This document shows positions 21,601 to 64,000 of a stretch of 64,000 nucleotides of DNA, in pieces. The DNA is from Torpedo marmorata (Eukaryota): positions 85,808,001 through 85,872,000 of the forward strand of contig OZ360225.1 in assembly GCA_977017645.1 (NCBI GenBank), given 5' to 3'. Within the stretch, counting starts at the first letter, position 1; each line of letters begins with the position of its first letter. The notes beneath the pieces are model-generated. The model did no database searches. It was not told the DNA's origin and saw only the letters and a program-made list of their open reading frames with translations. A program made the translations under genes and the position numbers.

Positions 21601-22988
21601 GACTGGGAGGTTTTGATGTGGACCAACAAGCAATGTGCCCTGAGGAAATCAGCCCCTAGGAGTGGTCGTTCTACTGCGGCGAGTGTTAAAGACCATGTGA
21701 ACCGGCTGTCGCCGAAACAGAGCGGCACGGTACTCATGCCGAACGTCCTTATTGTGGAGCAGTTTGCTGCTCTCAAAGATGGCCCCGGCCGTTTGTTGTG
21801 GATGTCGTATGCCGAGGGGGGAAGGACGCTGACTTCGGCTCCGGTGTCAACCAAAAACCACTGTCCATACAGGGAATCCCACTTGTGGGGCAGGCTATCT
21901 TGTTGGCCAACCGCCGCAGCCATTAAAGACGGCCGGCCGTGGTGTTTCCCGGGAACGCGCAGAGTGGGCGGCATCGGCGGGCCTCCGCACCCCATCGCTG
22001 GTGGTAGAAACAGCACTGCTCACCCGCGGGGTCCGTTTGCCTGTCGCGTGTGGCCGGCGGCTTTGTCGCTCGCTGTACGTGGGGCTTGGCGACGTGCTCC
22101 ACCACGACGTCAGAGTGCCTCTTCGACTTCCAGAGCACATCTGCCCGGGCTGCCACCTTCCTCGGGTTGCTGAAATCGTCGTCCGCCAGCAACAATCGGA
22201 TATCCTCCGGCAACAGGTCTAAGAAGATCTGCTCGAAGAGCAGGCAAGGTGTATGGCCGTTGGCGAGCCCTAACATTTCACCCATGAGGACGGATGGGGC
22301 CCTGTCCCCCAATCCGTCCATTTGCAACATTCAGGCCGCGCGCTCGCGCTTCGAGAGCCCGAAGGTGCGGGTTAGCAGCTTTTTAATGGCCTCATACTTC
22401 TTGACTTGGTGGGTGCCGGAGGAAATCGACGATTCTGGCTGCTGTGTCCTGATCCAGCAAGCTCACCACGTAGTAGTAGTGCGTGGCATCGGAGGAGATC
22501 TGGCGAATCTCGAACTGAGCCTCGGCTTGCTCGAACCAGACCTGTGACTGTGTTGTCCAGAAGGTCGGAAGCTTCAGGTCGACCGCGTGGATGCTAGCCT
22601 GGTCCATCGTCTTCGGGTCCAAAAATGCCGTTCAGACCCGTCGGGGTCACCAATGTAGCGCTGCAGCCGCTGCGTCGAAGGAACACTACTGCACTCAAGG
22701 TTAGCTCAAACAGGACTGACTTTATTGAGACTCTGGCTCTGCTTATATAGGGCCAGCTCCCAGGAGAGACCCGCCTCTTCCGGCCGAGATGATGTCATGG
22801 GCCGGCCGCTGATTGGCCGGTATTCCCGCCAGTGGGAATGACGTCATGGGCCGGTTGCTGGTTGGTCGGTTTTCCCGCCGGAGCTGGATTCACTGTAAGG
22901 AGGCCATTTAGTCCGTGGCCCTGGTGCGATCGCGTGTTCGATCGCCATTTTGTGTCGCGGCTCGCCAATCGGCCTGCGGGCCGCTACA
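18619..22988 (-). mobile_element. Second CsRn1-lineage Ty3/Gypsy element, full length but decayed
   Basis: LTRs at 18619-18905 and 22654-22988; TSD GTAT; PBS TGGTGACCCCGACG (tRNA-Trp, 22639-22652); gag with CFYHQRWGAEARRCRPLC; pol with VDTGA, YLDD, TDAS, HHCC and GPY in several frames. Confidence 0.93.
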
Positions 22989-24973: not shown

Positions 24974-27900
24974 TGTTACAAAATCAAACAGGCAACGACA
25001 GAAGACGCAATGCAAAAGGGGTAAAATTGAAATTTATATTTATTAAACACAATTAAACATATAATTTCACAACAATTAACCCCACTATAAACGTCTATAA
25101 ACACTATTCTTATCTAAAAGGTGTGTGTGTGTGTGTAAAGCCCAGACCATTACAGTCTGTGCCCAACCCTAATGTAAAAATGGAAAAACTTTCCCCAAAA
25201 ACCCCAGGTCAGTCATAAAAAACAAGTCAGTCAAAAAAAAGAATAATACAGCCCACAAAATTCACTCTCTAAGTTCAGGCTTCAAATTCAGCTCTGTGTC
25301 TGGTAGAAGTACTTCTGAATGAACGTTGGAGAGAGACAATGACTGTTTATGCTTACAAATACTTGTTTTCTTCTCTGATGACGTCCCCTTCTTGTGTGTT
25401 CATAAGGATTTCGAGTTCAGATCAGTATACCACTGATTTAGGCGTGTGCTTGAATCTCACAGCTAGTCTCGCTGATCTCACGCCTGTTCTCCACAGAAGT
25501 TGCTTTCAACTCAGAATTTCTCTGAGACAGGAGGCCATGTGCTATTCTGCCAGTCTTTTCTCTGACTGCCAAGCCTGGATTTGGCTGTGTTCTTTGCAAT
25601 TCACAACTGTCTGCTTTGTGCAGAGATCTGCACCTGCTTTTTGCAAAAGTGCAACAAATGTATCTTGTCCACAGTCTGTCTCTCTCTCTCTCTGTGGTCT
25701 CTCTCTGTCTGGGTACACCAAGAGTGCAACAATGTATCTTGTCTGGGTACACCAAGTCCTGGGGAAGTTAACTCTTTCAGTACCTGGCCCCAGTGTATAC
25801 TCCAAAAGACTTCATCCTTCCTGCTGACCGTCTGCAGTCCAAATGGTCAGTCATGGTCCATAACACCTCCCACCCACAAAGGAAATTTTGGTCTGCAAGA
25901 ACAAAATTTTGGAAAGTAATTGAGGTGTCACAATATAAACAAAATCTACAATGTTCATCCACAGTGTTAGGGCTGTGTGTTGTTGGGAGTGCCAGATGTG
26001 GGAGGTCCTGGAGTCTTCCAGACTCCCTGATGTCCATATCTGCACGAGGTGTGTAGAGCTGCAGATTCTTAGGGACCGTGTTAGGGAACTGGAGCTGCAG
26101 CTCGATGACCTCAGGCTGGTTAGGGAAACAGAGGAGGTCATAGACAGGAGTTACAGCCAGGTGGTCACGCCAGGGCCACGGGAGGAGGAAAGGTGGGTAA
26201 CAGTTAGAAGAGGGACAGTAAAACGTAAGGTGCCAGAGAGGAGCCCTATGACTGTAACCCTCAGCAATAAGTACGCCTCTTTGGGTACTGTTGAGGAGGA
26301 CAGCATAGTTGGGGGGAGCAGCAGTGGCTGTGCCTCTGGCACGGGGTCAGCCCCTGTGGCTCAGAAGGGTAGGGAAAGGAAGAGGAGGGCAATAGTTGTA
26401 GGGGACTCCATAGTCAAGAGGACAGATAGGGGATTCTGTGGACGCAGCAAGGAGAACCGGATGGTGGTTTGCCTCCCTGGTGCCAGGGTCCGGGATGTTG
26501 CTGCTCGTGTCCCGGATATCCTAAAGGGGGAGGGACAGGAGCCAGAGGTCGTGGTACATGTAGGTACCAATGACATAGGGAGGAATAGTGAAGAGGTCCT
26601 AAAAAGTGAGTACAGGCAGTTAGGTAGGGAGTTAAAAAGAAGGACCGCAAAGGGGTTAATCTCCGGATTACTCCCTGTGCCACGTGACAGTGAGAGTAGA
26701 AATAGAATGAGGTGGAGGATTAACACGTGGCTGAAGGGGTGGAGTAAGGGGCAGGGTTTCAAGTTTCTGGATCACTGGGACCTTTTTTGGGGAGATGTGA
26801 CCTGTACAGTAAGGACGGGTTACACTTGAATCCCAGGGGGACCAGAATCCTGGCAGGGGTATTTGCTAGGGCTACTCAGGAGCCTTTAAACTAGAAAGGT
26901 TGGGGGGAGGGAGCAAAATAGTACAGAGCAGTAAGGAGAAGGTTAGAACAGAGAAAGTTTGTAGTCAGTGTTTGAATATGGATGGGCAGGTGATAGAGAA
27001 GGTTACTAAAGATGAGGGCAAACAGAGATTAAGAAGTGGGAAATCTCTGAAATTCATATATTTTAATGCCAGGAGTATTGTAAAAAAGGTGGATGAGCTG
27101 AAGGTGTGGATTGATACTTGGAAGTATGAGGTGGTAGCGATTAGTGAGACATGGTTGCAGGAGGGATGTGATTGGCAGCTGAATATCCCTGGGTTTCGTT
27201 GCTTTAGGTGTGATAGAGTCGGAGGAGCAATTGGAGGTGGTGTTGCATTGCTTGTCAGGGAGAATATTACAGCGGTGCTGAGGCAGGATAGATTAGAGGG
27301 CTCGTCCACGGAGGCTATTTGGGTAGAACTGAGAAGTGGGAAAGGAGAAGTTACACTTGTAGGGGTGTATTATAGACCACCCGGAGGGGACCGAGACCTA
27401 GAGGAGCAAATCTGTAGGGAGATAGTGGATATTTGTGATAAGCACAGGGTTGTGATTATGGGAGATTTTAATTTTCCACATATAGATTGGGAAACACATT
27501 CTGTGAAAGGGCTGGATGGGTTGGAGTTTGTGAAATGTGTGCAGGATAGTTTTTTACAACAATATGTAGAGGTACCGACCAGAGAAGGAGCAGTGTTAGA
27601 TCTACTGTTGGCAAATGAGATAGGTCAAGTGACAGAGGTTTGTGTTGGCGAGCACTTCGGGTCCAGTGATCATAATGCCATCAGCTTCAATGTCATTATG
27701 GAAAGAGATAAGTCAGGGCCAAGGGTTGAGGTTTTTGATTGGGGAAAAGCTAGATTTGAGGAGATGCGAAGGGACTTACAGGGTGTGCATTGGGACAATT
27801 TGTTTTATGGGCAGGATGTAGTAGAGAGATGGAAGTCTTTTAAAGATCAGATTTTGAGAGTGCAAAAGCTTTATGTTCCTGTTAGGTTAAAAGGAGGGGC

Positions 27901-30900
27901 AAAAAGTTTGAGAGAGCCGTGGTTTTCGAGGAATATTGGAAACTTGGTTCGAAAAAAAAGGGAGGCGTACATTAAGTATAAGAAGCATGGAAATAAGGAG
28001 ATGTTTGAAAAATACATTGAATGTAAAAAGAATCTTAAGAGAGGAATTAGGAAAGCTAAAAGAAGGTATGAAGAGACTACAGCAAGCAGGGTGAAAATTA
28101 ATCCATAAGGTTTTTACAAATACGTTAATGGTAAAAGGAAAGCGAGGGACAAAATTGGTCCCTTAGAGAATCAGAGCGGAAAACTGTGTGTGGAGCCTAG
28201 AGAAATGGGGGAGATATTGAACAGTTTCTTTTCTTCGGTATTCACCAAGGAGAAGGATATTGAGATATGCGAGATAAAAAAAGCAAATTGGGTAAATATG
28301 GAGAATATAGGGATTACGAAAGATGTAGTGTTAGGGCTTTTGAGGCATATAAAGGTGGATAAGTCTCCGGGACCCGACGGGATCTTCCCCAGGACCTTGA
28401 GAGAAGTAAGCGAAGAAATAGCAGAGGCTCTGACGGTGATTTTCCAAATGTCATTAGTGATGGGGATAGTGCCGGAGGATTGGCGTATTGCGCATGTGGT
28501 TCCATTATTTAAAAAGGGTTCAAGGAGGAAGCCTGGCAATTATCGGCCTGTAAGTTTGACGTCTGTGGTAGGTAAATTAATGGAGAAAGTTCTCAGAGAT
28601 AGTACTTATAAATATCTGGATAGACAGGGTCTGATCAGGAACTCTCAACACGGATTTGTGAGCGGAAGGTCCTGTTTGACCAATCTGATTGAATTTTTTG
28701 AAGAGGTGACTAGGAATGTGGATGAGGGTAGCGCAGTGGATGTTGTCTATATGGACTTCAGTAAGGCCTTCGATAAGGTTCCGCATGGAAGGTTAGTTAG
28801 GAAGGTGCAGTCTTTAGGTATAAATTCTGAGATAGTCAAATGGATTGAACATTGGCTGGAAGGGAGAGGCCAGAGAGTGGTAGTGGATAATTGTCTGTCA
28901 GGTTGGAGGCCGGTGATCAGTGGTGTGCCTCAGGGATCTGTATTGGGCCCATTGTTGTTCGTTATATATATCAATGATCTAGATGATGGGGTGGTAAACT
29001 GGATTAGTAAATATGCAGATGATACTAAGATAGGTGGAATAGTGGATAATGAAGAAGGTTTTCAAGGATTGCAGAGGGATTTGGGCTGCTTAGAAAAGTG
29101 GGCTGAAAAATGGCAGATGGAGTTTAATGCTGATAAGTGTGAGGTGCTTCATTTTGGTAAGAAGAATCAGAACAGGACATATGTAGTAAATGGGAGAGCA
29201 TTGATGAATACAGCAGAGCAGAAAGATTTAGGAATAACAGTGCATCGTTCCCTGAAGGTGGAAACTCATGTGAACAGGGTGGTGAAGAAGGCTTTTAGTA
29301 TGCTGGCCTTTATCGATCATTGCAAATAATATAGGAGTTGGGAAGTGATGTTGAGATTATATAAGGCTTTGGTGCGGCCTAATTTAGAGTTCTGTGTGCA
29401 GTTCTGGTCGCCAAATTATAGGAAGGATATCAACAAGGTGGAGAGAGTGCAGAGAAGGTTTACCAGAATGTTACCTGGTTTTAAGAATCTAGAGTACAAG
29501 GAGAGATTGAGCATATTAGGTCTTTATTCTTTGGAGCGTAGAAGGTTGAGAGGGGATTTGATAGAGGTATTTAAAATTTTGAAAGGGATAGACAGAGTGG
29601 ATGTGGATAGACTATTTCCATTAAGATTAGGAGAGATTGAAACAAGAGGACATGAGCTAAGAGTTAAGGGGCAGAGGTTTAGAGGTAACATGAGGGGGAA
29701 CTTCTTTACTCAGAGAGTGGTAGCGGTGTGGAATGAGTTTCCGGGAGAAGTATTGGCGGTAGAGTCAATTTTATTATTTAAGAAAAAGTTGGACAAGTAT
29801 ATGGATGAGAAGGAAGTGGAGGGTTATGGGCAGGCTGCAGGTAGGTGGGACTAGATAGGAGTGTTTGGTTCGGTGCGGACTGGAAGGGCCTAATGGCCTG
29901 TTTCCGTGCTGTAATTGTTATATGGTTATATAAGGCTTTGTTGCGGCCTAATTTAGAGTTCTGTGTGCAGTTCTGGTCGCCAAATTATAGGAAGGATATC
30001 AACAAGGTGGAGAGAGTGCAGAGAAGGTTTACCAGAATGTTACCTGGGTTTAAGAATCTAGAGTACAAGGAGAGATTGAGCATATTAGGTCTTTATTCTT
30101 TGGAGCGTAGAAGGTTGAGAGGGGATTTGATAGAGGTATTTAAAATTATGAAAGGGATAGACAGAGTGGATGTGGATAGACTATTTCCATTAAGAATAGG
30201 AGAGATTGAAACAAGAGGACATGAGCTAAGAGTTAAGGGGCAGAGGTTTAGAGGTAACATGAGGGGGAACTTCTTTACTCAGAGAGTGGTAGCGGTGTGG
30301 AATGAGCTTCCGGGAGAAGTAGTGGCGGCAGAGTCAATTTTATTATTTAAGAAAAAGTTGGACAAGTATATGGATGAGAAGGAAGTGGAGGGTTATGGGC
30401 AGGGTGTAGGTAGGTGGGACTAGATAGGAATGTTTGGTTCGGTGCGGACTGGAAGGGCCTAATGGCCTGTTTCCGTGCTGTAATTGTTATATGGTTATAT
30501 GGTTAAATATAAAATATTAACTATTTTCATTGATAAAGTTTAACATCTAGAAAGACAATCAGCAATTACATTATCTTTCCCTTTTATATGAGTGATTACC
30601 AAATTATATTCTTGCAAAATTAGACTCCAATTCAACAACCGTCGATTCTTATTTTTCATTTTACAAAGAAAAACCAATGGATTATGGTCAGTATACACTA
30701 TGAGTGGTTTTTGAGCTGTACAGATATACACATCAAAGTGTTGTAGAGCCAACACAAGAGCCAACAACTCTTTTTCTATGGTTGAATAATTCCTTTGATG
30801 ATCATTGAACTTCTTCGAGAAGTAGGATACCGGATGGTCAATGTCCTCTTCGTTCTTCTTCTCTAACAGCACCGCACCCACAGCTTCATCGCTGGCATCC

Positions 30901-33900
30901 ACGGCTAAAGAAAACGGCTGTTCTAAATTAGGTGACTTAAGCACAGGTTGGTGGCATAACATGGCTTTCAATTTGACAAATGCTTCCCGACAACCTGTTG
31001 ACCATACAAATTTTTCTCTCTTTCTAAGCAAATTTGTGAGAGGGAGCGCAAGATCAGCAAAGTTTTTACAGAACTTGCGGTAGTAGCCAATCATTCCCAG
31101 GAACCTCCTCAGAGTTTTCTTACCAGTTGGAACAGGGAACTCGGAAATAGTCACAACCTTTTCCTCTACTGGCGCGAACTACCCCTGTCCTACTACATAA
31201 CTCAGAGAATTAACAGTTCCATGACCCTCTCTGAATCTGGTTTTATCTGTCTCCTCCTTACCCCTGTCAATAACCAGTACCTCTGGTACATTTTCAGTCC
31301 CTTTTTGAGGCACCTGTTCAAAATACGGCTTAATCATATTCATATGACAGACCTGTGTGTTTCGTCTGTGATCAGGTGTTTCTATGACATAGGTGACATC
31401 ATTAATTTTTGACTTAACTCTATAGGGTCCTGAAAATCTAGCCCTAAGATGATTTGAATGGATGGGAAACAGAACTAATACGTTCTCACCAGGTTTAAAA
31501 GTTCTCATCTTCGCCTTTCGATCATACCATACCTTCATTCTCCGTTGAGTGGCCTTTAAATTCTCCTTTGCCATCTCACAAGCCCTATGCAATCGATCCT
31601 TAAATTTGGAAACATAATCTAACAGATTTAAATGCACATCACGATTAATCCACTGTTCTTTTAATAATCTTAAAGGACCTCTCACCTCATGTCCGAAAAC
31701 TAACTCGAATGGACTAAAACCAAGTGATTCTTGGACAGACTCCCTCGCTGCAAATAACAACAAATGAACCCCCTCATCCCAATCCTTTTCCTCTCACAAC
31801 AATAGGTTCTAATCATGGTTTTCAAAGTCGAATGGAACCTCTCCAAGGCCCATTGACTTTCTGGATGGTACGCAGAGGATACAATCTGTTTAACTCCCAG
31901 TCCATCATCCACTTGTTGGAAAACGCCTGACATGAAATTACTGCCCTGATCTAATTGAATTTCCCTTGGCAAACCTACCAAGGTGAAAAACTTTACCATA
32001 GCCTTTACAATTGACTTTGCTTTTATGTTTCTCAGAGGAATGGCCTCTGGAAATCTGGTGGCTGCACACATAATTGTTAACAAATACTCATTACCCGCTT
32101 TGGTTTTGGGCAATGGGCCAACACAGTCCACAATTACTCTCGAGAAAGGCTCACTGAAAGCAGGGATAGGTTGCAAGGGTGCCACCGGGGGACCCTGATT
32201 AGGTTTACCCACCACCTGACAAGTATGACAGGCCCGGCAAAAGCTTACAACCTCCCTTCTTAAACTGAGCCAATAAAATTTTTTTCATTATCTTCCTTAT
32301 AGTTTTCTTCACCCCAAGGTGTCCACCTAAGTGTGTACTATGAGCCAAAGTTATTATTGCATCCCTATATACTTTAGGGATTACAACCTGCTGCACTACT
32401 GCCCATTCTTCATTGGCAGGAACATCACTTGGTCTCCACTTTCTCATCAACACCCCATCTTTTTCATAATAACCCACTGGTACCTTTTTAATCTCCTCTT
32501 CAGAGAGAACCTTATCCCTCTCCTCAGCAAGATCAGGATCGTCCTTTTGCCTTGCTATTAACTCCTGTCGGGATAGTGACAAATCTGTGCCTTTAGGTGT
32601 CTTATCAGTGGATGGGTGTAACATAGGAGATTGCTCAACCTTTTCCAGGTTTTCTTGATTATCAGTTTCTTTTTCTTTTACCAAGTTATTTTCCTCTGCC
32701 TTTTCTACAGTGACATTTTTCTTAGACATGGCCCTGGTTATGGCACATGCCGGATAAATATCAGAGTCTTTCTCTGACTTATCAATGACTGGCTTAGTGG
32801 TCATTCGCACTGCAGGAACTACTTTACCCTTGGCCAAGTCATTGCCTAACAACAGTGAGACTCCTTCTACGGGCAACTCTGATCTCACTCCTATTATAAC
32901 TGGTCCTTCCACCAAGTTAAGTCCAATACTATTTTGTGCAAAGGAATGGACTCAACTTCACCACCAATTCCTTTAATTAAATTTATGTCACCGGTGTCAG
33001 TAGCTTCACAAAATTCCAAGACACTATCTAACACAAGTGACTGAGCAGCTCCAGTATCTCGCAAGATTTTCACTGGAACTTGTTTTGATCCTGCCTTAAC
33101 TGAAACAAAACCATCAGTCACAAAAGGTTTAAATACATCTTTAACTTTGTCAGTAAATTTATCTCCTTCCTGGGTGTTATGCATCTTCTCACCCTGAATA
33201 CAAGCATTAGGTGTTGCATCCTTTTCTCTCTTCTTTTTCAACACTGGACAGCTTGCTAGCATATGACCAGCCTTCCTACAGTAGTGGCAAATGGGACCCG
33301 AATGGTTTTCCCTTTTCCACTTTCCTTCATCCCTTTCCTTAACCCCACTTCCAAATTTACTTTCCACTTGCTTCTCATTATCCACCGTGACCTTTTGGAA
33401 AATTCTACCTGACGTCCACTTAGGCTTGTGGGTTAAAGCATATTCATCTGCTAACTTAGCTGAATTTTGCCAAGTTTTCACCTCCTTTTCATCTAAGTAT
33501 GCCTTAATATCCTCAGGAACACACCTTTTTATCTCCTCGATTATTATCAATTCTCTCAATTGATTGTAATCATTGTTTACTTCCTTAGATGTGCACCACC
33601 TGTCAAAACACACAACTTTTTCATAGGCAAACTCTGTATAAGATTGGGTTGCTGATCTTTTTAAATTTCTAAACTTCTGTCTATAAGCCTCTGGAACTAA
33701 CTCATAAGCCTTTTTCACCGTTTCATAATCAGCAGCTTGCTCTGTGGTGAGAGTAGAATAAGCTTGCTGAGCTTTTCCTTTTATTACACTTTGTAACATA
33801 AGAGACCATTGGTCTTGTGGCCATTTTAATTTTACAGCCACTTTCTCAAAATGTTGGAAGTACTTATCTATTTCTGCCTCCTCAAATGGAGGAACCAACC

Positions 33901-35352
33901 TAACTTCTCTACTAGCCAAAAACCCCTCAGCAGGATGACGAATTTGATCTTGGTACTCTTCTTGTCTCCCCTCATTTTCCAACTTTATCTTTTCCAGCAT
34001 ATATCTCCTATTTCTCTCATCGTTCTCGTGTCTCTTTAGTTCCAATTCCATGTCCAATTTCTTTTGTTCCAATTCCAATTCCTTTATTTCCAATTGTATG
34101 TTTTCAGAAGGTTTACCCTTGGGAAACTGCTCTAACACGCTCTCCTCAAATTTTTTTTCTTTTATATAGAATTTGACTATTTTTCTCCCAATCTCTGCCT
34201 TTTTCATTGATGGTTTTACAGAAGCAATGCCCAACTCTGTTGCTATAGCCACTAACTATTCCTTTTTCGCCTTTTGTAAAGTATCAGGTTCAGGTAATTC
34301 CAAAAAATGTTCTACATCCATTGTTGCTGGTTTTTTGTTACACACACACTAGCTTTTAATTAGCTTTACAAAAGGAATGCCTTAAACCAAACTGGGATTC
34401 CTTCAATTACCAAGATGGATTTTGATTCAAATCCCGGACGAGCCCCCAATTTTGTTACAAAATCAAACCAGCAACGACAGAAGACACAATGCAAAAGGGG
34501 TAAAATTGAAATTTATATTTATTAAACACAATTAAACATATAATTTCACAACAATTAACCCCACTATAAACGTCTATAAATACTATTCTTATCTAAAAGG
34601 TGTGTGTGTGTGTGTTTAAAGCCCAGACCATTACAGTCTGTGCCCATCCCTTATGTAAAAATGGAAAAACTTTCCCCAAAAACCGCAGGTCAGTCATAAA
34701 AAACAAGTCAGTCAAAAAAAAGCATAATACAGCCCACAAAATTCACTCTCTAAGTTCAGGCTTCAAATTCAGCTCTGTGTCCGGTAGAAGTACTTCTGAA
34801 TGAACGTTGGAGAGAGACAATGACTGTTTATGCTTACAAATACTTGTTTTCTTCTCTGATGATGTCCTCTTCTTGTGTGTTCATAAGGATTTCGAGTTCA
34901 GATCAGTATACCACTGATTTAGGCGTGTGCTTGAATCTCACAGCTAGTCTCGCTGATCTCACGCCTGTTCTCCACAGAAGTTGCTTTTAACTCAGAATTT
35001 CTCTGAGACAGGAGGCCATGTGCTATTCTGCCAGTCTTTTCTCTGACTGCACAAGCCTGGATTTGGCTGTGTTCTCTAGCCTTTGCAATTCACAACTGTC
35101 TGCTTTGTGTAGAGATCTGCACCTGCTTTTTGCAAAAGTGCAACAAATGTATCTTGTCCACAGTCTGTCTCTCTCTCTCTGTGGTCTCTCTCTGTCTGGG
35201 TACACCAAGAGTGCAACAATGTATCTTGTCTGGGTACACCAAGTCCTGGGGAAGTTAACTCTTTCAGTACCTGGCCCCAGTGTATACTCCAAAAGACTTC
35301 ATCCTTCCTGCTGACTGTCCGCAGTCCAAATGGTCAGTCATGGTCCATAACA
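24974..35352 (-). mobile_element. Gmr1-type Ty3/Gypsy element (PR-IN-RT-RH order), RT mostly deleted, CR1 nested in its 3' UTR
   Basis: LTRs of about 890 bp at 24974-25865 and 34453-35352; TSD AAAC; tRNA-Pro PBS 34426-34448; PPT at 25866; gag with CCHC and protease LRDTGA (32894-34320); integrase 31300-32400 lies upstream of RT end and RNase H 30540-31250. Confidence 0.93.
25963..30504 (+). mobile_element. Near full-length CR1 LINE with a duplicated 3' end
   Basis: ORF1 has a Cys finger, leucine zipper and SGNH esterase (VGDSIV, HVGTND). ORF2 has an endonuclease (FNARS, ETW, GDFN, SDH) and RT (PQGS, YADD) with two premature stops. (TATATGGT)n tail. Confidence 0.95.
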
Positions 35353-39900: not shown

Positions 39901-40291
39901 CCGGACAGTTTCCCCCCAGAGTCTCTGTTTTCAGTGTCGGCAGGGATCAATATTCGCAGCAGTCCTTTGGTAGCATTTAAGTTGTTGGCTCTGTTGGCGC
40001 ATTCATCGGCCACGCGTCCAAACACCGCTCAGTGCAGCCATCACCGCTTCCAGCGCCCGCAGATGAGTCATCCTGTGAATGAAGGAAACTCACTCTCTCC
40101 GGGTTAGTATTGTTCAAAAACATCATGACTGCATGGGTCCAGTAAAAACTCCTTGAGTCCTGCTCGCTGCGCCAAATGTTGTGTTCAGAATAGGTTTGAC
40201 GGATTCAAATAAAATCAGGGATGGACACGTGTTATGAACAAACAGTGGTCTTTATTTACACACAGGGGAATTCACAAAAAGGGCACACACT

Positions 40292-40740
40292 CACAGGCAC
40301 GGTATACCGAGAAACAATAGTTTAACTTGTTTAACACCCACCACCCACAGGCACTGTATACCGAGAAACGAGGGTTTAACTTGTTCTGCACCCACCACCC
40401 ACAGGCATTGTATACCAAGAAACGAGGGTTTAACTTGTTCAGAACCCACCACCCACAGGCACTGTATACCGAGAAACGATAGTTTAACTTGTTTAACACC
40501 CACCACCCACAGGCACTGTATACCGAGAAACGAGGGTTTAACTTGTTTTGCACCCACCACCCACAGGCATTGTATACCAAGAAACAAGGGTTTAACTTGT
40601 TCAGCACCCACCACCCATAGGCACAGTATACTGAGAAATGAGGATTAAACTTGTTCAGCACCCACCACCCACAGGCACGGTAAACTGAGAAATGAGGATT
40701 AAACTTGTTCAGCACCCGCCACCCACAGGCACAGTATACC
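40292..40740. repeat. 54-bp tandem array (about 8.3 units) with a 162-bp higher-order duplication inside the ERV LTR
   Basis: Units start at 40292, 40346, 40400, 40454, 40508, 40562, 40616, 40670 and 40724. Units 1-3 share diagnostic variants with units 4-6. Confidence 0.95.
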
Positions 40741-42840
40741 GTGTAACAAATAAACCTGGTCTCCAGTGTCCCTGCTGCTCGGGATCCAGGACATGCCTCC
40801 AGAGCTGCCTGCAGCTGGAGCTCAGCAATGGTCACAACTAACAAGTACATACACATAAACCTGGTTTCCAGCATCGACCACGGTTCGGGATCCGGGACGG
40901 GCCCATTGCAGTCGGCCCTCCGGAGCTGCCTGCAGCCTGGACTACAGGTATGGTTTGAAGGCATCAACAAACAAAGTGAGAGAGAGACAGAGACTGCACG
41001 TGCTGCTTTTTCAATGCAGCACCCATCCACGTGACCTGCAAGGACCAATCGTGCATCAGCCTCAACTGTGGGCGGATCTAACCATTGATTGGCACCTGAA
41101 GGACCAATTACACGTCAGCAGCCAGGGCCAATCACGCATCAGCCTCACAGGTGGACAGATCTGTCCCTTGATTGGCAGGTGAGGTGACTTTCGACTAGGC
41201 TCCAGCAGAGGTGACATGACCCTCCGCAATCCACATTCCGACCAGGTTCCAAATGGAGAGGCCACAAGACCCTCTACAATCCACACTCCCACCAAGTTCC
41301 AGACGGAGAGGCCACATGACCCTCCACAATCCACACTGCACTCCGATAGACCCATTGTTTCCGCGTGTTCCTGCCCTACCGAACTGGTATCATCATTCCT
41401 TGACTCCATTTTGTCCCCCTTGGTCCAGTCCCTCCCCACCTACATCCAGGGTGCCTCACATGCCCTCCATCACTTAGACAACTTCAAGTTCCCTGGGCTG
41501 GACCACCTCTTTTTCACCATGGAAATCCAGTCCCTATACACCTCCATCCCCCATAAAGATGGTCTCATGGCCCTTTTTCCTTCCTCAATATCAAATCTAA
41601 CCAGTACTCCTCCAACCACCACCCTCCTTGGCCAGTCAAAGCTTGTACCCGCCCTCAGTAACTTCTCCTTTGGCTCATCCCACTTTCTCCAACTCATAGA
41701 TACTCACATGGGTCCCAAACATGGGTACCTGCGTGGATCTCAGCTATGCCTGTCTTTTTGTCGGATTTGAAAGTCTGCAGAGGCAAGGCTCCTCAACATT
41801 GATGATGACATTGGTGCTGCCTCCTGCACCCATGATGGGCTCATCAACTTTATCCACTTTGCTGCCAACTTTCACTCTGACTTCTCTGTCTCCATCTCGG
41901 GAGACAAATGATCTCCAGACATCTATAAACCCACTAACTCCCACAGTTACCTTGACTACACCTCTTCGCACCCTGTCTACTGTAAAAATTCTATTCCTTT
42001 CTCTCAATTCCTCTGTCTCCACCGCATCTGCTCCCAGGATGAGATCTTCCATTGCAGGACATCTGAGATGTCCTCCTTCTACAGAAAATGTGGTTTCCCC
42101 TCTACTGCCATTAACTCAGCCCTTACCCGCATCTCCTCTATTTCCTGCACATCTGCCCTACCCCTTCCCCCCACCCCCCTTCCCCCGAGATGAAAGAAGG
42201 ACAAGCTTCCCCTTGTCCTCACCTACTACCCCACCAGCCTCCACATCCAACATGCTATCTGTTATGCTTGTTCTTTCAAGAAGAACGACTTTACGTGGGT
42301 TTAACACTTAACCGACTTTATTTTCCTTGAACTGCTTCAACCGACTTCCAACTGTCTTCAACCGACAATAACTGACAATGCTCGCGACTCCCCTCATATA
42401 CACCTCTTACGCTTTCTGTCCAACCGCGCGCATTAAATGCTGGGAAACGTAGTTCTTATGTACACGCATAATACATCTTTCCCCTTTACAAAAAAAAACA
42501 AAAAACTCAGTACTATGTCTACATAACAAGCATATTTACAGAGTATGTACAAGATACAGTAGACTAGACAGCTATTGCCCGTCTGCATTGGTTTTGCAAC
42601 AATCACAAAATATATCTTCATTTAACAGGCAAGGCCTTTCTTAAAGTGGTACCGCTTTACTTTTTGAGGTTCGACCGGGACGAATTTCACACCAGCAAAA
42701 TGTCAGCCAGTCACACAAACACTGAACAATATAAATGTTGCAGCAGAACGTGTCCTTTTTTTTTATCTGGTTCTCGTGCCTGAGGTCAATGTTCTTGCTC
42801 AGAAGATGCAGAAGTTGTTTTCTGATCTGTTCACTGGATA

Positions 42841-43921
42841 GTTCAAGTCTACTCCAGCAAGTTGACTGTTTTTAGAGTATTCTGACTGAATTTTTACGAG
42901 TGTCTCTTGAGGGTCATAGAACACTACAGCACAGAAAACAGGCCATTCGGCCCTTCATGTCTGTGCCGACCATTATTCCGTTAGTCCCATTGACCTGCTC
43001 CCATTCCATAACCCTCCAGACCTCTCCCATCCATGTATCTATCCAATTTATTCTTAAAACTTAAGATCGAGCTCGCATTCACCACATCAGGTGGCAGCTC
43101 ATTCCACACACCCACCACTCTCTGTGAAGAACTTTCCCCTAATGTTCCCCCTAAACCTTTCCCCTTTCAGATTAAAACTATGACCTCTTGTATTTATCTC
43201 CCCCAATCTAAATGGAAAAAGCCTACTCACATCCACTCTGTCTATACCTCTCGTAATCTTGTAAACCTCTATCAAATCTCCCTCATTCTTCTTCGCTCCA
43301 AGGAATAAAGTCCTAACCTGTTTAATCTTTCCCTGTAACTCAACTCCTGAAGCCCTGGCAACATCCTAGTAAATCTTCTATCGTCATATCCTAAGTTTTG
43401 TGCAAGTACCTTGGGAATAATAAACAGAGCATCTGCAAATGCTTGCACTCCCAACTGTGCTCTGCCCTTTACGTTGGCCTTGTGTTTGATCAAAGCATGT
43501 GCCACACATCCATCCTCAATTGCCAATTTTTTTTTTTCATCAGCACTTTTATTGAAGAATCCAGAATTTACTTCCGTCTTTTCATACTCCAGTGAAATGC
43601 AGCAGGTGAGAATGTAAGCATCTTCCACCCTTTTCTTCATGTCCGGGTGCCGAGCACCATGATCCAATACTATTCCCTTCACAAGGTGTGTCACTCTGTT
43701 TTTATTTTGTGTTTCATCTCCATAATTTCAACCATGAAGAGATCCATTGACTCGTTTGGTTTCTTCACTGTCAGAACAGCATCCACCACAGCCTCTGCCA
43801 AGACAGCTGCCAATTCGTTGTGGACCTTTGTGCGTAACGATGTCCTGGTAACATTGATAAGAGTCTCTCTAACCACTTCTTTGGATATTTTCACCTGCTC
43901 CACCATTTCCAGGGCCTTCTC
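42841..43921 (-). pseudogene. CCT6A: Captured, internally deleted CCT6 (TCP-1 zeta) fragment, split by a CR1 insertion
   Basis: [44 protein letters not shown] and VKGRAQLGVQAFADAL..IPKVLAQN.GYD|PQETLVKIQ...GVDLN; intronless; frameshift near 43693. Confidence 0.95.
42919..43382 (-). mobile_element. CR1 3' fragment inserted in the CCT6 retro-fragment
   Basis: RRFTRMLPGLQELSYRERLNRLGLYSLERRR; flanked by GTCATA on both sides (42913-42918 and 43383-43388). Confidence 0.9.
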
Positions 43922-44179
43922 CTGATGTTCTTGAAAATGGAGAGCCATCAAATGACTGATTTCATCCTCAAGCTGGGAAATGGTGTGTTGGGCATTAGTA
44001 GCCTCCATATTATACCAGTCTTCCATATCTTGCATCTGGCACTCAAGGGATTCATTCGTTCCCTTCAGTGCATCAATTTCACAGGTCAGTGTCCGGACTT
44101 GCCTGCGGTACTCATTATTTTCTTGTTTTGCCAAACTAAGAGCATCATTGTTACGAGAAGCAGAATCAGTTATATCGGC
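43919..44179 (-). pseudogene. Captured fragment of a type III intermediate filament (vimentin/desmin/peripherin-like coil 2)
   Basis: [46 protein letters not shown] matches vimentin [44 protein letters not shown]; no intron present. Confidence 0.92.
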
Positions 44180-44239
44180 CAGCACCTCACGTAATCCTCC
44201 GATCCTATGAAACTGGTTGACAGATGGATCCCGACTAAG

Positions 44240-44400
44240 ACTCTCAACAGTCCCTGCAGAATCAAAGATGGGACCAGAGGTTTGAACATCTGTATCAATT
44301 CGATTAAGAGACTCTCTTGAAGCAGTTCGTACAAGTGACTCCTTTTTGATGGTGACGAGAAAAGTGATTCTTTTGAAGAAGCTCGAAATAAAGATTCCAT
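44240..44400 (-). pseudogene. GOLGA4: Captured fragment of golgin A4 N-terminal region
   Basis: [37 protein letters not shown] (one frameshift near 44345) matches the recalled human GOLGA4 VESLFRSPIKESLFRSSSKESLVRTSSRESLNRLDLD. Confidence 0.85.
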
Positions 44401-45228
44401 CTCAGTCTTCTGGCCTGCAGCAGTCTGTAGTGAATCCACGAAGAATTCCTCCATTTCCTCGTCCACTGTGTATACCATTCTCTTGGTATCCCCTGCCTTG
44501 CAGCACCTTGCAAAGTGATTCTTCTTCCCACATTTGTAGCAGGACATTCCATAGGCAGGACACATCTTTGGAATATGCCTACCTCCGCACCTGCTGCATT
44601 TGCTGTTTGAGCTTACCACTTTGCTTCGTTGTTGCTCTGGGAAACTCCTGGTGCTCTGCCTATCTACCTTCATCGCATGCACTGCTGTGTCTATCCTGTG
44701 CAGCTCCTCAGCTTGTGCTCGTGTGGTCTCTGCTGCCCTACACGTATTCACAGCCTTTTCCAGTGTCAAATCTTTTTCATGCAACAGTCTTTCTCTAAGC
44801 CCATTATCTGTGATTCCGCAAACTATTCTGTCTTTAATGAGTGAATTTTTCAAATCTCCAAATTCACAGGACTTACTCAGTGTGTGAAGCTTGGCTAAGT
44901 ATTGGCTGAAGCTCATACCTTGTTTCTGGTCACAGGAGAAAAACTTGAAACTCTCAGACGTGATGTTTTGACTTAGGACAAAATACTCATCAAATCTTGT
45001 CATGAGAGTGTCCAACGTGAAAGCTGTCTCATCAATTTGAAAAATGTTATAGATGTCCAAGGCATCTTCACTCATCACGTGCAAAAATATAGACGCTTTC
45101 CATTTTCCATTGGTCTCTCCCGCTCCACTAGCCTATAAATAAATGTTGAATCGCTGTTTGAAGCGTTTCCAATTATCGGCTAGATTGCTGGTAAACTGCA
45201 TCGGTGTGGGAGGACTTAACTTATCCAT
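44401..45228 (-). pseudogene. gag: Gag (Mag-like) with two zinc knuckles and one in-frame stop near 45135
   Basis: NLADNWKRFKQRF, IKDRIVCGI...LRERLL...LTLEKA, CSRCGGRH...C and CYKCGKKNHFARCC. Confidence 0.88.
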
Positions 45229-46679
45229 GCTTACGAACTATTGTCTTCTCTTACTCAGACACTTCTGACACTATGTTATGCTTGTTATTTCAAGAAGAAC
45301 GACTTTACATGGGTTTAACACTTAACCGACTTTATTTTCCTTGAGCTTCTTCAACCGACTTCCAACCGTCTTTAACCGACAATAACTGACAATGCTCGTG
45401 ACTCCCCTCATATACATCACTTCCGGTTTCTGCCAATCGCGCGCATTGCATGCTGGGAAATGTAGTTCTTATTTACATGCATAATAACACACTATCCTCC
45501 ACAATTTCCGGCAGCTACAACAGGATCCGACTACCGGACACATCTTCCCCTCCATTCTCCTCTCCCTTTTCCATAGGGATCGCTCCCTCCAGGACTCCCT
45601 CATCCACCTATCACTTTTCACTAATTTCTCCCTTGGTACCTACCCCTGTGACCGCAAAAAATGCTACACTTGCACTTACTCCACTTTCCTCATCACTAAT
45701 CGAGGCCCTAAACAGTCTTTCCAAGTGAAGCAACACTTCACGTGAATCTGTAAGGAGCATTTACTGCATCCAGTGCTCCTGATGCGGTCTCCTCTACATC
45801 GAGGAGTCTGGATGAAGACTGGGAGATTGTTTCATTGATTACTTTGCTCTGTCTGCTGCAACAGCAAGGACAACAGTGGCCAACTATTTTAATTCCACAC
45901 ATCATTGCCACACCGACATGCCAAATTGAGGCCTTCCAACAAATTGGAGGAACAACATCTTGTATTCTGTCTCGGCAATTTCCAACAAGGCGACGTTAAT
46001 ATCAATCACCAACTTTCATTAACCCCCTACTTTCCCTATCCTTCTCTCTCCTCAAGCTCCCCACTCCCTTTCCTACCTTTTCCTTGAAGAGAGCTGTCAG
46101 TCCTCTGCGCTCTTCCACCATCACATTTCAGCTTCTTTCTCTTCTACCCTCTCACCTGTTTTCACCAATTACCTCTTACCTGTGAGCCTGTGCTCTTCCC
46201 CTTCCTCCCTCCTCTCCTCCCCCATCCCCTAACCATTTTATTCCTGACAAGGGGCTCAGGCCAGAAATGGTGGTTGCCTTTTACCTCCTGTGGTTACTGC
46301 GGGACCTGCTGAGTTTCACCAGCAAATTTATGTATTGCAAAAAAAAATTCTGCTTTATACAGCTCCATTGGAATAGATTGTTTTGCAAATCACTATCATT
46401 AAAATGGCTGCAAATGAGTACAATTACCAAAGTGAGAACAAAATTTGGTGAATTGAAAGCAAGTCTGCTGCAGGTTCAGATTTTTGACAATGCCATCAAA
46501 TTCTGATATGATTGTATTACCTCCAGTGCTATTTGAAATCATAGCCAAATCTTGTTATGCACAGAACATTAGAAAAGGCAGAAAAGATTGCTTATGACAT
46601 ACAACATAACCGAAGGATGTCAATCCCATTAATTCTGACTTATGTTAAGACCTTAACTTAAATACGCTATTATTTGTTA

Positions 46680-60817: not shown

Positions 60818-61018
60818 TACACAAATGTGCTGGAAAAACTCAACAGGTCACACAGCAACCACAGGAAGTAAAAGATAGCCAAGATTTTGGGCTTGATCTG
60901 TTCATCAGGAATAAGGAAAAACAGATAGATGCCTGAATAAAAAGGGGAGGGGGAGGAGGAGATGAGGAAGGAAGAGGGAGATAGAGGAATGAAGCCTATC
61001 AGGTAAGAGGTAATAGGT
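60818..61018 (-). mobile_element. Penelope-type terminus remnant
   Basis: 'tgctggaaaaactcaacaggtc...ttttgggcttgatctgttcatcagga' followed by a purine tract. Confidence 0.6.
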
Positions 61019-61019
61019 G

Positions 61020-64000
61020 CATTTAATTCTAAAGCAAGAGGGGTAGCTATATCAATTAATAAAAAGTTACTTATTAAGATACAATCGGTAGTTATAGATG
61101 TGACAGGAAGATATGTTTTGATACATTGTCAGATTTATTCAGAATTTTGGACACTCATGAATTTATATGTGTCAAATCCAGATGATGAACAATTCATTCA
61201 AGATGCTTTTTTACATTTGTCAGAAGCTAACGAGAATATTTTGGTTGGGGGAGATTTTAACTGTTGTTTAGATTCAATAATGGATAAGACTTCAAGATCA
61301 TCGGTTAAAGGTAAGATTGTTAAAAGAGTTCTTAATTTGATGAAAGATTTAAATTTAATAGATATTTGGAGGAAATTGAACCCTAGGGAGAAAGATTATT
61401 CATTTTATTCTTTTAGACATGATTCATATTCCAGGATAGATTTATTTTTATTGTCCTCTCAAGTTCAAGATAGAATAACGCAAGCATCCTATAAAGCGAG
61501 AGTAATTTCTGATCATTCACCTTTATTAATATCTTGTATAATTCCGGAAAAAGAAAAAATTGTATATTATTGGAGATTTGACTTATCCTTGTTAAAAAGA
61601 AAAGATTTTTGTGAATATATGAGAAGGGAAATTCAGGAATTTTTGCGAATAAATGCGAATTCTATTGATGATAAATTTATTGTTTGGGAAGCTTTAAAAG
61701 CCTATTTAAGGGGTCATATAATGTTATTCAGCTAAAATTAAGAAAGATTATCTTAAGGAAGCAGAAAAACTAGAGAAGGAGATTGAATGTTTGGAAAAAG
61801 ATTTACAAAAAAACAGATCAATTCAAAAAAGAAATTGTTTAATAGGGAAGAAACTACATTATAATTTATTGCAAACATATAAAATGGAAAAATTAATTGA
61901 GAAAACTAAACAAAGATATTATGAATTAGGGGAAAGAGCTCATAAAGTTTTGGCATGGCAATTAAAAAAAGATCAAGTTTCTAGAACTATAAGTGCTATA
62001 AGGAAGAAAAATTCTGGAGAAATAACTTATAAACCTCAAGAAATAAATGAATCTTTTAAAGATTACTATTTGAATTTATATAAATCTCAGATTGATCAAG
62101 ATGATTCTAAAATTACTAGATTCCTATCCAAAATTACATTACCTAAACTGAATATTCAGAGTAGAGATTCTTTAGACTTACCTTTTACAATGAGGGAAGT
62201 TAGTGAAGTTCTTTCTTCATTAAAGAGTGGTAAGTCTCCGGGTGAAGATGGGTTTCCATCAGAATTTTATAAAGAGTTTAAAGATTTATTAATACCTCCA
62301 TATATGGAAGTACTGCATCAGATTACGGAAACTCATTCATTACCGAAAACTTTTTTAAATGCAATAATTACAGTTATACCAAAGAAGGATAGGGATGTAT
62401 TAAAAACTGAATCTTATAGGCCTATTTCATTATTAAATGTAGATTATAAAATAATGGCAAAAATTTTAGCAAATAGAATGGCTAATTATTTGCCAGATTT
62501 GATTCATGTAGATCAAGCAGGTTTTATTAAAAATAGATATTCAAAAGACAATATAGCTAGATTGATTAGTTTAATTAATTTGCATAAAAAGAAACAAGAT
62601 TTACCATTAGTTTTAATATTAGACGCTGAAAAGGCTTTTGATCGATTAGAATGGAATTTTTAATTTAAGGTATTGGAGAAATTTGGCTTTGGAAATACAT
62701 TTATTAATTGGATTAAAACTATATATAAAGAACCATCTGCTAAAGTAGTTACAAATGGACAAATTTCCTCAAAATTTCCTTTGACGTTCTACTAGACAGG
62801 GATGTCCTCTGTCACCAGCATTATTTATTTTGGCGATAGAACCTTTGGCTGAATTAGTTAGAAAAGATCCTAAAATAGTTGGTATTAAAGTTGGTACGGA
62901 AGAACATAAAATTAGCTTGTTTGCGGATGATGTACTGATATATATGACAAAATCTACTACATCACTTCAACAATTATCTATTATATTAAGAGATTATGGG
63001 GAAATATCTGGATATAAAATTAATTCTGATAAAAGTGAAATAATGGCATTATCTCAAGGCGATTATAGTAGATGTAAAGAAATTACACAATTTAAATGGG
63101 CAAAGGAGGGAATTAAATATTTGGGAGTAAAGGTTGATATAAAATTGGATAATTTATATAAATTAAATTATTTACCATTATTTGCGAAAATAAAGAAAGA
63201 TTTAGAGAATTGGAAAGATTTACCTATAACTTTAATGGGAAGGGTAAATTGTATTAAAATGAATATTTTTCCAAGAATTCAGTATTTTTCAATCAATTCC
63301 TTATGGAATTCCTCAAAAAAATTTTAAAGATACACCTAAAAAATTGAAGAAATTTAATCCAGCGTTATCAGATATGTGTTTTAGATGTAAAACTGAAATA
63401 GGATCTTTTGTACATTGTACATGGTCATGTTCAAAAATTCAAGATTTTTGGTTGAAAGTTAAGAATTTTTTAGAAAGAATTTTTAATGTTGAAATTGCAA
63501 TGGATCCTATGTTATTTTTATTTGGAGACATTAAAAAATTTAGTATTAGACATAAATTGAATATGTATCAAGTAGAATTTTTACGTATAATATTAGCAAT
63601 TTCGAAAAAATGTATAGCTATTACTTGGAAATCGGATGTTGATTTAAATCTAGAACGATGGCATGCAGAGTTACGGTCATGTATACCATTGGAAAAAATT
63701 ACCTATAATTTACGAAATAAATATCATTCTTTTTTGAAAATTTGGGGCCCATATACGAGGATTATGGGTTTAACATTGTGAACTCTCTGGATATTAGACC
63801 TACCGGCGAAATAACCTCTAAGATATACTAGTTTTTTCTTTTAAGCTTATTGACTCCTCGCTCTATCTTTCTATCTCTTTTTTTTTTTTTCTCTTTTTCT
63901 TTTACTATTATTATTTTATATCTTAATTAGATTAGGGGGGTATAGGGGTTAGGGAGGGGAGGGTGGGACGTGGGGGGGAGAAAATGTAATCACATGTATT
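61020..64000 (+). mobile_element. L1/Tx1-like LINE ORF2 (EN-RT-C-terminal), decayed, with an internal deletion
   Basis: GGDFNC, SRIDLF, SDHSP, YRPISLLNVD, LFADD and CFRC motifs; about 0.8 kb missing near 63331 relative to the copy at 15974-18371. Confidence 0.92.

Follow-up and report, generated by a model that had tools for sequence, protein, structure and literature searches.

Defective Ty3/gypsy elements in the genome of Torpedo marmorata carry pieces of host mRNAs in the place of pol, and in the derivatives that became amplified this cargo extends the reading frame of gag by at least ~240 codons, with a coiled coil among its parts. The four chimeric families comprise ~430 copies, or ~41% of the 1038 gag copies, and the pattern suggests that the fusion of cargo to the capsid protein helped defective elements to spread. 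The best reading, and in our judgement a moderately probable one, is that selection would have favoured a translated Gag fusion acting in cis.

The element in the 64-kb window

The window is the whole stretch of 64,000 nucleotides that was analysed. Its element is a single dead copy of a dispersed, non-autonomous, Mag-like Ty3/gypsy family and lies entirely on the minus strand, with the following parts from its 5' to its 3' end:

45492..45496, no strand: target-site duplication (TSD), 5' side; CTATC on the plus strand (GATAG on the minus strand) flanks both ends
45274..45491 (45491-45274), minus: 5' LTR, with TG...CA ends
45260..45273, minus: primer-binding site (PBS), directly after the 5' LTR, with a single change from the form in other copies
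44413..45228, minus: gag (two zinc knuckles) plus gag-protease linker; a private stop lies at 45135-45133
44184..44421, minus: GOLGA4 mRNA pieces, in the gag frame in most copies, with a private frameshift at ~44343 here
43919..44186, minus: type III intermediate filament (IF), coil 2B, in frame; two exons joined without the 2.5-kb intron
43691..43921, minus: CCT6 residues ~128-200, in frame, terminating in a +2 shift and stop (43693-43691)
43383..43690, minus: spliced CCT6 exons beyond the shared stop
42919..43382, minus: LINE 3' end, inserted later into CCT6 and bordered by a 6-base repeat; other copies lack it
42841..42918, minus: CCT6 residues ~457-482
42761..42847, minus: piece of an uncharacterised chondrichthyan gene, joined out of frame via a 7-base overlap
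42541..42759, minus: non-backbone piece common to cargo family D
42476..42540, minus: backbone 3' leader and polypurine tract (PPT; 42487-42476)
42260..42475, minus: 3' LTR
42255..42259, no strand: target-site duplication, 3' side

The first-pass annotation had placed an LTR element with two LTRs, the TSD CTATC, PBS, PPT and gag at 42260..45491, and all of these parts are confirmed. PR, RT and IN are absent, as it had stated: the alignment to a pol-bearing copy ends at 44413 and picks up again at 42540. Over its first 1085 bases the window gag is 87% identical in DNA sequence to that of a pol-bearing copy, and it gives weak Pfam matches to PNMA, Retrotrans_gag and zf-CCHC. The LTR pair has 17 mismatches in 213 aligned bases, and the private lesions of this copy are the gag stop, the GOLGA4 frameshift and the loss of ~390 CCT6 bases at ~43523.

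Host pieces do fill the cargo span of 44400 to 42841 given at first, but GOLGA4 starts at ~44421 and two further pieces reach 42541. Likewise, GOLGA4, type III IF and CCT6 stand as donors, while the two additional non-backbone pieces had been missed. The element was also thought to have inserted as one unit, which shared joins and TSDs bear out except for the LINE 3' end (43382-42919), presumably CR1-like, which was added later.

Host donors and their joins

Intron-bearing parents of GOLGA4, IF and CCT6 are found in the same genome, their exons being 86-100% identical per segment to the element. All three donors, compared with these parent loci, show exon-exon joins in the element, in line with the earlier description of intronless pieces. 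The GOLGA4 part consists of the end of one exon and the next exon with a 42-base deletion, followed by a switch to a later exon. The piece at 42847-42761 is 93% identical over 29 amino acids to an uncharacterised chondrichthyan protein, with myosin-like names in the database, and the piece at 42759-42541 resembles the end of a coding region followed by a 3' UTR.

The overlaps read at the family-A switch points are microhomologies of 3-7 bases, which agree with the capture by RT template switching proposed in the first-pass annotation; the join into the last piece falls within an A-run. The host sequence is flanked by LTR-element sequence on both sides, and at the family-A joins the pieces are internal fragments, none with a poly(A) tail or a TSD of its own. 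Spliced donors, microhomologies and shared joins together point to template switching as the probable route.

Seven of 10 donors are coiled-coil-like, based on Pfam matches to Filament, LIP-1 and TPR, a CEP131_CC lead and a generic coiled coil in family D; the others are CCT6 and two more. For the family D coiled coil, a candidate CCDC150, Pfam and the atlas returned generic matches only. The Pfam search with the last piece of family B, presumably C2CD2-like, returned nothing. A 615-base insert in one locus (L136) was rejected as cargo, being a probable nested repeat with no open frame above 76 codons and 11 matches in other loci.

Cargo families, copy numbers and dispersal

A junction of the GOLGA4-IF-CCT6 family (family A) has 66 matches across the genome, against 0 for the reversed control, and the copies sit in different flanks with different TSDs. 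Of the scored cargo copies, 15/17 have TSDs with at least 4/5 matches, including 7/8 family-A pairs. Dispersed copies with individual TSDs indicate that the chimeras were copied as units, and the non-autonomous dispersed family proposed earlier is thereby upheld. The family joins are also bridged by contigs from independent public sequencing runs; that one of these (X12) is RNA is a guess, and its bridging contig is therefore no evidence on transcription.

These results bear on a trivial explanation, by which the locus would be an assembly chimera or separate LINE-driven retrocopies would have landed in a decayed LTR element. One true LINE is nested in the window copy and no long read was found to span the locus, but identical joins at 66 places, their bridging in independent runs and the internal, microhomology-joined donor pieces contradict this explanation, which we regard as practically negligible. 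The earlier possibility of later LINE insertions applies to the nested LINE only.

Three further cargo sets sit on this LTR-gag backbone, namely GOLGA4-CEP131 (family B), liprin-TPR (family C) and coiled coil-CCT6 (family D). Family C is the most numerous with 324 copies, and family A (at least 66) outnumbers B or D. The class counts, including 591 pol-bearing copies, give 591+324+66+about 12+25 = 1018 against 1038 gag ends, leaving little room for cargo-free derivatives; there may be additional small cargo families. The outline of the family given by the first-pass annotation is borne out, although the sister families and the in-frame fusion to Gag had been overlooked.

Families A and B have one gag/GOLGA4 join in common, A and D have a 3' piece in common, and one hybrid copy (L012) is family A at the front and family C behind, indicating that the chimeras recombined together and that the cargo grew serially.

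Backbone lineage and pol-bearing partner

The backbone appears to be Mag-like Ty3/gypsy, as placed by gag, frame and PBS features. Its gag has two adjacent zinc knuckles and gag-pol is read without a frameshift, both being features of the Mag lineage in the available text of PMC5408684. The PBS in other copies is the 12-mer given for Steamer, a 12-base Leu-tRNA sequence (available text of PMC8905726), from which the window copy is one change away. A pol-bearing relative shares its LTR, PBS and gag with the cargo copies, which keep the cis signals but have no pol; in L123 the pol domains run in the order PR-RT-IN. LTR ages are similar between copies with cargo and copies with pol, which together with the shared termini suggests mobilisation by helper Pol. 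Among the best 150 Gag relatives, 43 are single long gag-pol proteins, and in 7 gag is followed by over 130 residues that do not match a protease; no clear coiled-coil host fusion is found among these 7, a weak test.

Reading frame of the Gag-cargo fusions

In most family-A copies gag, GOLGA4, IF and CCT6 are fused in a single frame, the anchor intervals being divisible by three in 30/39, 39/44, 40/42, 30/37, 40/40 and 29/35 cases. For families B, C and D, the interiors of single-copy open frames stay in register in most other copies. In a manual tally, whose events are not fully independent, in which two donor frames are presumed and which omits both joins of the piece at 42759-42541, gene-to-gene joins are in frame in 9/10 cases (p 0.009) and multi-copy joins plus large deletions in 15/16 (p ~2e-4). 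Both values use a null of 0.49, from an in-phase share of shared words measured on the donors as 0.40-0.49, above one third. With shared 1-2 base indels added, the tally becomes 15/20 (p 0.017 at 0.49).

Neutral capture could produce part of this pattern if codon periodicity puts microhomologies in phase and a few chimeras in active loci were amplified by chance; coiled-coil mRNAs might be purine-rich or abundant where particles form. The raised in-phase share, the mere four or five founder lineages, the several shared frameshifts and the 14/17 young fly retrocopies whose ORF keeps the frame of the parent (available text of PMC5131818) are all compatible with it. However, 15/16 in frame is improbable even at 0.49, the scored pieces are all in sense orientation and the shared frameshifts all lie beyond at least ~240 cargo codons. 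Considering also the purifying trend on gag described below and the few cargo-free copies, we find neutral capture quite unlikely. A literature search on mRNA co-localisation as a reason for donor choice was unproductive.

Selection might instead act on the RNA alone: an early stop after gag would create a long 3' UTR and lead to decay. Any long open frame would then be of advantage, whatever its protein tail, and the coiled-coil donors would mirror co-packaged mRNAs. This fits family C, whose frame is open almost to the backbone's own end, the neutrality of the cargo amino acids although the frame is kept, and two large deletions downstream of family A's stop, which are in frame as if the ORF was formerly longer. 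Family A fits poorly, since 30/32 copies share a +2 shift and a stop, which ends the cargo frame at 247 codons and lies ~1.3 kb before the poly(A) signal (measured in L002), yet the family exceeds families B and D with their longer frames. Selection on RNA alone also leaves the 7/10 coiled-coil donors unexplained, and we consider it unlikely.

Tests for selection on gag and cargo

Between family A and the pol-bearing copies, gag has a net pN/pS of 0.28 (bootstrap 0.11-0.67), compared with 0.65 within groups, a trend towards purifying selection that is borderline for A, the upper bound overlapping 0.65. The gag signal in families B and D is not significant. Upstream of the shared stop the cargo has 19 nonsynonymous and 4 synonymous shared changes, not different from private ones (p 0.47), indicating no sequence constraint on the coiled coil; no purifying selection on the cargo protein was found in this region. 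The CCT6 sequence downstream of the stop shows a synonymous excess (11 nonsynonymous, 12 synonymous; p 0.005 versus private changes), which may reflect either change in the parent lineage or an earlier constrained phase.

A Gag joined to oligomerising domains is similar to known restriction designs, and the host might have retained the fusions either for small RNAs made from them or as dominant-negative Gag that poisons the autonomous element. This resemblance and the purifying trend on gag speak for host retention, but the copies are dispersed, star-like and decaying with near-neutral private changes, the upstream cargo frame is broken in 32/36 family-A copies (unbroken today in 4/36), and cargo and pol-bearing LTR ages are alike. 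No conserved single locus was seen, and we judge retention by the host very improbable. A domesticated chimeric gene was likewise rejected, as this genome showed no conserved locus at which the fusion protein is under purifying selection.

Proposed mechanism

For the reading that we prefer, a Gag fusion acting in cis, the following course is proposed. A single-ORF, Mag-like gag-pol element burst in the T. marmorata genome, and inside its particles RT may have switched repeatedly to co-packaged host mRNAs and back at 3-7 base microhomologies, replacing pol. The chimeras, which retained LTRs, PBS, PPT and gag, were copied as units, probably using the Pol of pol-bearing siblings, and recombined among themselves with serial growth of the cargo. 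The Gag-cargo polyprotein could substitute for Gag-Pol and act in cis, with ongoing translation tethering nascent Gag to its own RNA; the coiled coil may aid multimerisation, or be a merely tolerated tail, and the own RNA would gain a packaging edge.

Spliced donors, the kept frame, few cargo-free copies, gag pN/pS, the coiled-coil donors and the precedent of mouse IAP 1-delta-1 count for this reading. Counting against it are family A's early stop, the 15/20 tally and its manual nature, neutral cargo changes, the borderline gag signal, the non-coiled-coil donors and the 4/36 unbroken frames.

More broadly, we put forward tentatively that retrotransposon parasites recruit host coiled-coil coding sequence, repeatedly and independently, as an in-frame replacement of Pol, that the Gag-coiled-coil fusion packages its own RNA in cis, and that exchange of cargo modules between the families amounts to exon shuffling at high copy number in the germ line of a vertebrate.

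Capture of mRNAs by LTR elements is commonly regarded as a rare, low-copy accident, while here it involves four families with ~430 copies. The serial intermediates can be traced, and the parent genes, 93-95% identical, are in the same genome. If the frame and coiled-coil bias reflects selection, the families are a natural experiment on the cis-coding needs of a non-autonomous LTR element competing for packaging, and a route into a vertebrate genome for multi-gene fusion ORFs, hundreds of them, that bring their own promoter. For annotation, GOLGA4, CCT6, TPR, liprin and CEP131 will gain tens to hundreds of false paralogues in the assembly.

Comparison with known systems

Acutely transforming retroviruses have helper-dependent genomes with host mRNA in frame with gag (gag-onc), and are selected via cell growth by one functional oncogene. 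The elements described here differ in lacking env, in carrying fragments of several genes and in their unconstrained cargo sequence.

The following comparisons refer to the available text of each source. A precedent is mouse IAP 1-delta-1, a very successful non-autonomous LTR element whose gag fusion ORF reportedly acts in cis, but its gag is joined by deletion to the element's own pol, without host sequence (PMC6466679). Mag and Steamer-like Ty3/gypsy elements share the two zinc knuckles, one-frame gag-pol, 12-base Leu-tRNA PBS and short LTRs, whereas no captured host coding sequence is described for them in that text (PMC5408684, PMC8905726). Maize Bs1, too, is non-autonomous and has an LTR structure, it carries pieces from three cellular mRNAs, and its copies have switch points in common; it differs in its one to five copies, in having one of three pieces out of frame, and in being a copia-like plant element of a single family rather than a cargo-exchanging set (via PMC5131818).

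LTR-mediated retroposition in animals was surveyed by Tan et al. 2016 (PMC5131818), with 5 loci in zebrafish, 4 in chicken and 8 in mouse. As in those cases, we see partial spliced mRNAs within an LTR element, microsimilarity at switch points, secondary transposition and multi-gene chimeras (there up to four genes in one mouse locus). Unlike them, the T. marmorata elements form four families with ~430 copies, ~41% of the lineage, and their cargo extends the gag frame over successive joins, whereas frame is there considered relative to the parent gene. The open-access literature searched gave neither a description of this family, in agreement with the first-pass annotation, nor a frame-preserving Gag-host fusion at comparable scale; the full data of the PMC5131818 survey could list comparable fish cases. 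LTR-mediated capture is already known from Bs1 and PMC5131818, and the in-frame fusion of Gag to host sequence at such a scale is apparently new.

Structure and spread of the window element

The first-pass annotation described LTRs, target repeat, primer binding site (PBS), purine tract and gag in one unit, and all of these parts are present. The element, a gag-GOLGA4-type III intermediate filament (IF)-CCT6 chimera on a Mag-like Ty3/gypsy backbone, represents what we call family A:

45491 to 42260, minus strand, LTR element with LTRs, target repeat, PBS and purine tract
43382-42919, LINE 3' end of 464 bases, inserted in the window copy

Over 213 aligned bases the two LTRs show 17 mismatches. 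The element has a 5-base target repeat on both sides, a PBS behind the 5' LTR and a purine tract ahead of the 3' LTR. GOLGA4-, type III IF- and CCT6-like sequences follow gag in this order, with the best database proteins coming from Tetronarce for IF (79%) and Narcine for CCT6 (92%), which makes an electric ray the probable host. The three proposed genes were recovered, and two more donor pieces follow CCT6. The window copy is a dead, atypical family member, with a private stop in gag, a frameshift near 44343 and about 390 bases of CCT6 missing.

The window consists almost entirely of repeats. The element breaks a repeat (41183-42259 and 45492-45999) whose translations presumably resemble a Penelope-like element. 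Three further Ty3/gypsy-like elements (5709-9268, 18824-22547, and 30540-34255), several LINEs (4294-5580, 25939-30423, and 61007-63781) and, within an open frame of 280 codons, a 54-base unit repeated in tandem (40234-40827) are also found.

The whole-element search of the 6.22-Gb assembly gave 40 scored candidates, with the same part order at many places. A 30-base pattern across the GOLGA4/IF join had 66 matches and its reversed control none; 66 is a lower bound because two family A members (L008 and L017) are missing from the matches. Among the loci analysed (n = 47; 27 from the whole-element search and 20 from a later search), a matching target site duplication (TSD) was found in seven of the eight family A copies with both LTRs scored, whose median LTR-pair distance is 0.076; the chimera is a dispersed family, as had been proposed. 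Two copies on different contigs (L002 and L003), with TSD and flank in common, go back to a single insertion that was duplicated later.

Public runs from four studies supplied contigs for comparison with 43383-45270. In the 32 listed of about 5,900 records, contigs span the gag/GOLGA4 join by at least 31 bases in three of four runs, the GOLGA4/IF join in three and the IF/CCT6 join in two. An assembly chimera is thereby countered for the joins of the family, the bridging contigs being family copies and not the window locus itself.

Spliced donors and switch points

Alignment to the intron-bearing parents, located on contigs C30 (GOLGA4), C5 (IF) and C49 (CCT6), upheld the claim of intronless cargo. 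In the IF piece two exons meet that lie 2.5 kb apart in the parent, and complete copies join nine CCT6 exons with introns of up to 38 kb removed, five of the eight exon joins being retained in the window copy. The GOLGA4 piece opens in the final 12 bases of one exon, continues into the next and later switches to an exon 10 kb further on. The median identity of family A cargo to the parent exons is 93-95%. The fourth donor (42847-42761) is an uncharacterised chondrichthyan gene, followed by a fifth non-backbone piece (42759-42541). Overlaps at the switch points, scored by eye, are 5 bases at gag/GOLGA4, 4 and 5 inside GOLGA4, 4 at GOLGA4/IF, 3 at IF/CCT6 and 7 at CCT6/fourth donor.

One intron of the CCT6 parent (L088, G000:C49 near 84682440) starts with GC, not GT. 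An intronless piece of the same IF gene, covering residues 215-294, lies at L080 4686-4925 (G000:C39:92889185-92889424) and does not match this LTR backbone. An intronless TCP-1 family match with 61% identity to CCT6, inside a 530-codon open frame (G000:C30:205375074-205375439), is a candidate functional retrogene.

Sister families and pol-bearing relatives

A pol-bearing copy (L123) has the same LTR, PBS and gag as family A, followed by protease, RT and integrase, with one frame from gag to RT; these features agree with those given for Mag/Steamer elements in PMC5408684 and PMC8905726. Three further cargo sets share the LTR-gag backbone:

Family B, gag-GOLGA4 (five exons)-CEP131-last piece, L071-L076 and L107-L116, e.g., G000:C40:56279000-56288999
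Family C, gag-protease-liprin-alpha-TPR, L036, L042, L092, L125, L128, L129, L132 and L133
Family D, gag, coiled coil, CCT6 residues 40-142, 3' piece, L051-L060 and L094-L096

Family B shares the gag/GOLGA4 join with family A and keeps more GOLGA4 exons; its CEP131 piece is an atlas lead of high confidence, its last piece is presumably C2CD2-like, and three of seven copies share a late 2-base deletion. In family D, 12 protease residues lie between gag and a generic coiled coil, putatively CCDC150, and the 3' piece is the same as the fifth piece of family A. In the variant L094 the CCT6 portion is longer and the fourth donor is present as two pieces; L096 has an open frame of 390 codons. The recombinant L012/L031 (G000:C31:119807439-119811423) joins the family A front half to protease and family C cargo.

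Pattern matches with up to three mismatches, which are minimum counts and differ in sensitivity from class to class, gave 591 pol-type copies (including internally deleted ones), 324 of family C, 66 of A, 25 of D and 1038 gag ends; about 12 family B copies came from reading 67 rows. The classes total 1018 against 1038 gag ends, with cargo families making up about 41%. In a gag tree of 66 rows, families A (99/97) and B (100/100) each form one group, with bootstrap values not fully settled, and family C is intermixed with pol-bearing copies. LTR-pair distances overlap between classes (medians 0.059-0.095; 1-8 pairs per class), and all classes therefore spread in about the same period. The protein P0270, a Gag relative with further, presumably Ric-8-like, sequence after gag, could reflect either a chimeric gene prediction or a further capture.

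Reading frame and selection

The gag-GOLGA4-IF-CCT6 fusion is in frame, successive anchor intervals being multiples of three in 30/39, 39/44, 40/42, 30/37, 40/40 and 29/35 copies. A shared +2 shift in the next interval (30/32 copies) ends an ORF of about 520 codons; past this stop lie two shared in-frame deletions, -24 and -33, each in 25/28 copies. Private small indels are frameshifts in 84 of 108 cases, and only 4/36 copies have an unbroken upstream cargo frame. In the CCT6 part, two purine tracts of the parent read as pure A-runs (about 43535 and 42760 in the window), and their length differs among copies.

Words of 3-7 bases that donor coding sequences share with one another are in phase in 40-49% of cases. 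In a tally made by hand, 9/10 gene-to-gene joins (p 0.009) and 15/16 joins plus large deletions (p 2e-4) are in frame at a null of 0.49. Adding three single-copy L094 joins gives 17/19; counting four shared 1-2 base shifts together with the 16 events gives 15/20 (p 0.017). The tally omits two joins to the fifth piece, the L136 insert and the TPR-to-pol-end join, which is in frame in L132 and preceded by an immediate shift in 9/11 other copies; samples for families B to D are small, at most 8-13 other copies per tile set. No shared out-of-frame event falls within the first 240 or so cargo codons. As a raw share, seven of the ten donors are probably coiled coils, two of them judged by names or generic hits; family A has only the non-coiled start of GOLGA4, its coiled coil being IF coil 2B.

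Neutrality, which we consider unlikely, is opposed by this frame bias. In cargo ahead of the family A stop, shared changes from the parents (19 nonsynonymous, 4 synonymous) resemble private ones (382/130; p 0.47); past it, shared changes are 11/12 against 330/103 private (p 0.005). Net pN/pS of gag against pol-bearing copies is 0.28 (0.11-0.67) for family A and 0.48 (0.20-1.17) for B, with a within-group baseline of 0.50-0.67; for C and D the ratio carries no signal.

Proposed mechanism and comparison with known systems

These families captured spliced pieces of several genes at microhomologies, transposed as whole units and exchanged modules, and they show a frame bias. Template switching inside particles would have produced the chimeras, and helper Pol could mobilise the cargo elements in trans. 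The gag-protease linker is kept ahead of the first join in every family, so helper protease could release the cargo tail. We favour selection for a translated Gag fusion, which would give its own RNA an advantage in cis; IAP 1-delta-1 is a precedent for a fusion acting in cis, according to PMC6466679. Selection for avoiding RNA decay is an unlikely alternative source of the open frame, its strict form being opposed by the early stop in family A, which also weakens the cis-acting fusion.

A literature search, with repeat databases and closed journals outside its scope, found no description of these Gag-cargo families. As far as the accessible parts of the sources describe them, Bs1 and the LTR-mediated retrocopies of PMC5131818 work in the same mode, and their tested features are found here. 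The present families differ from both: they are larger in scale, they have exchanged cargo serially with one another, and they fuse coiled-coil donors to Gag with the frame preserved.
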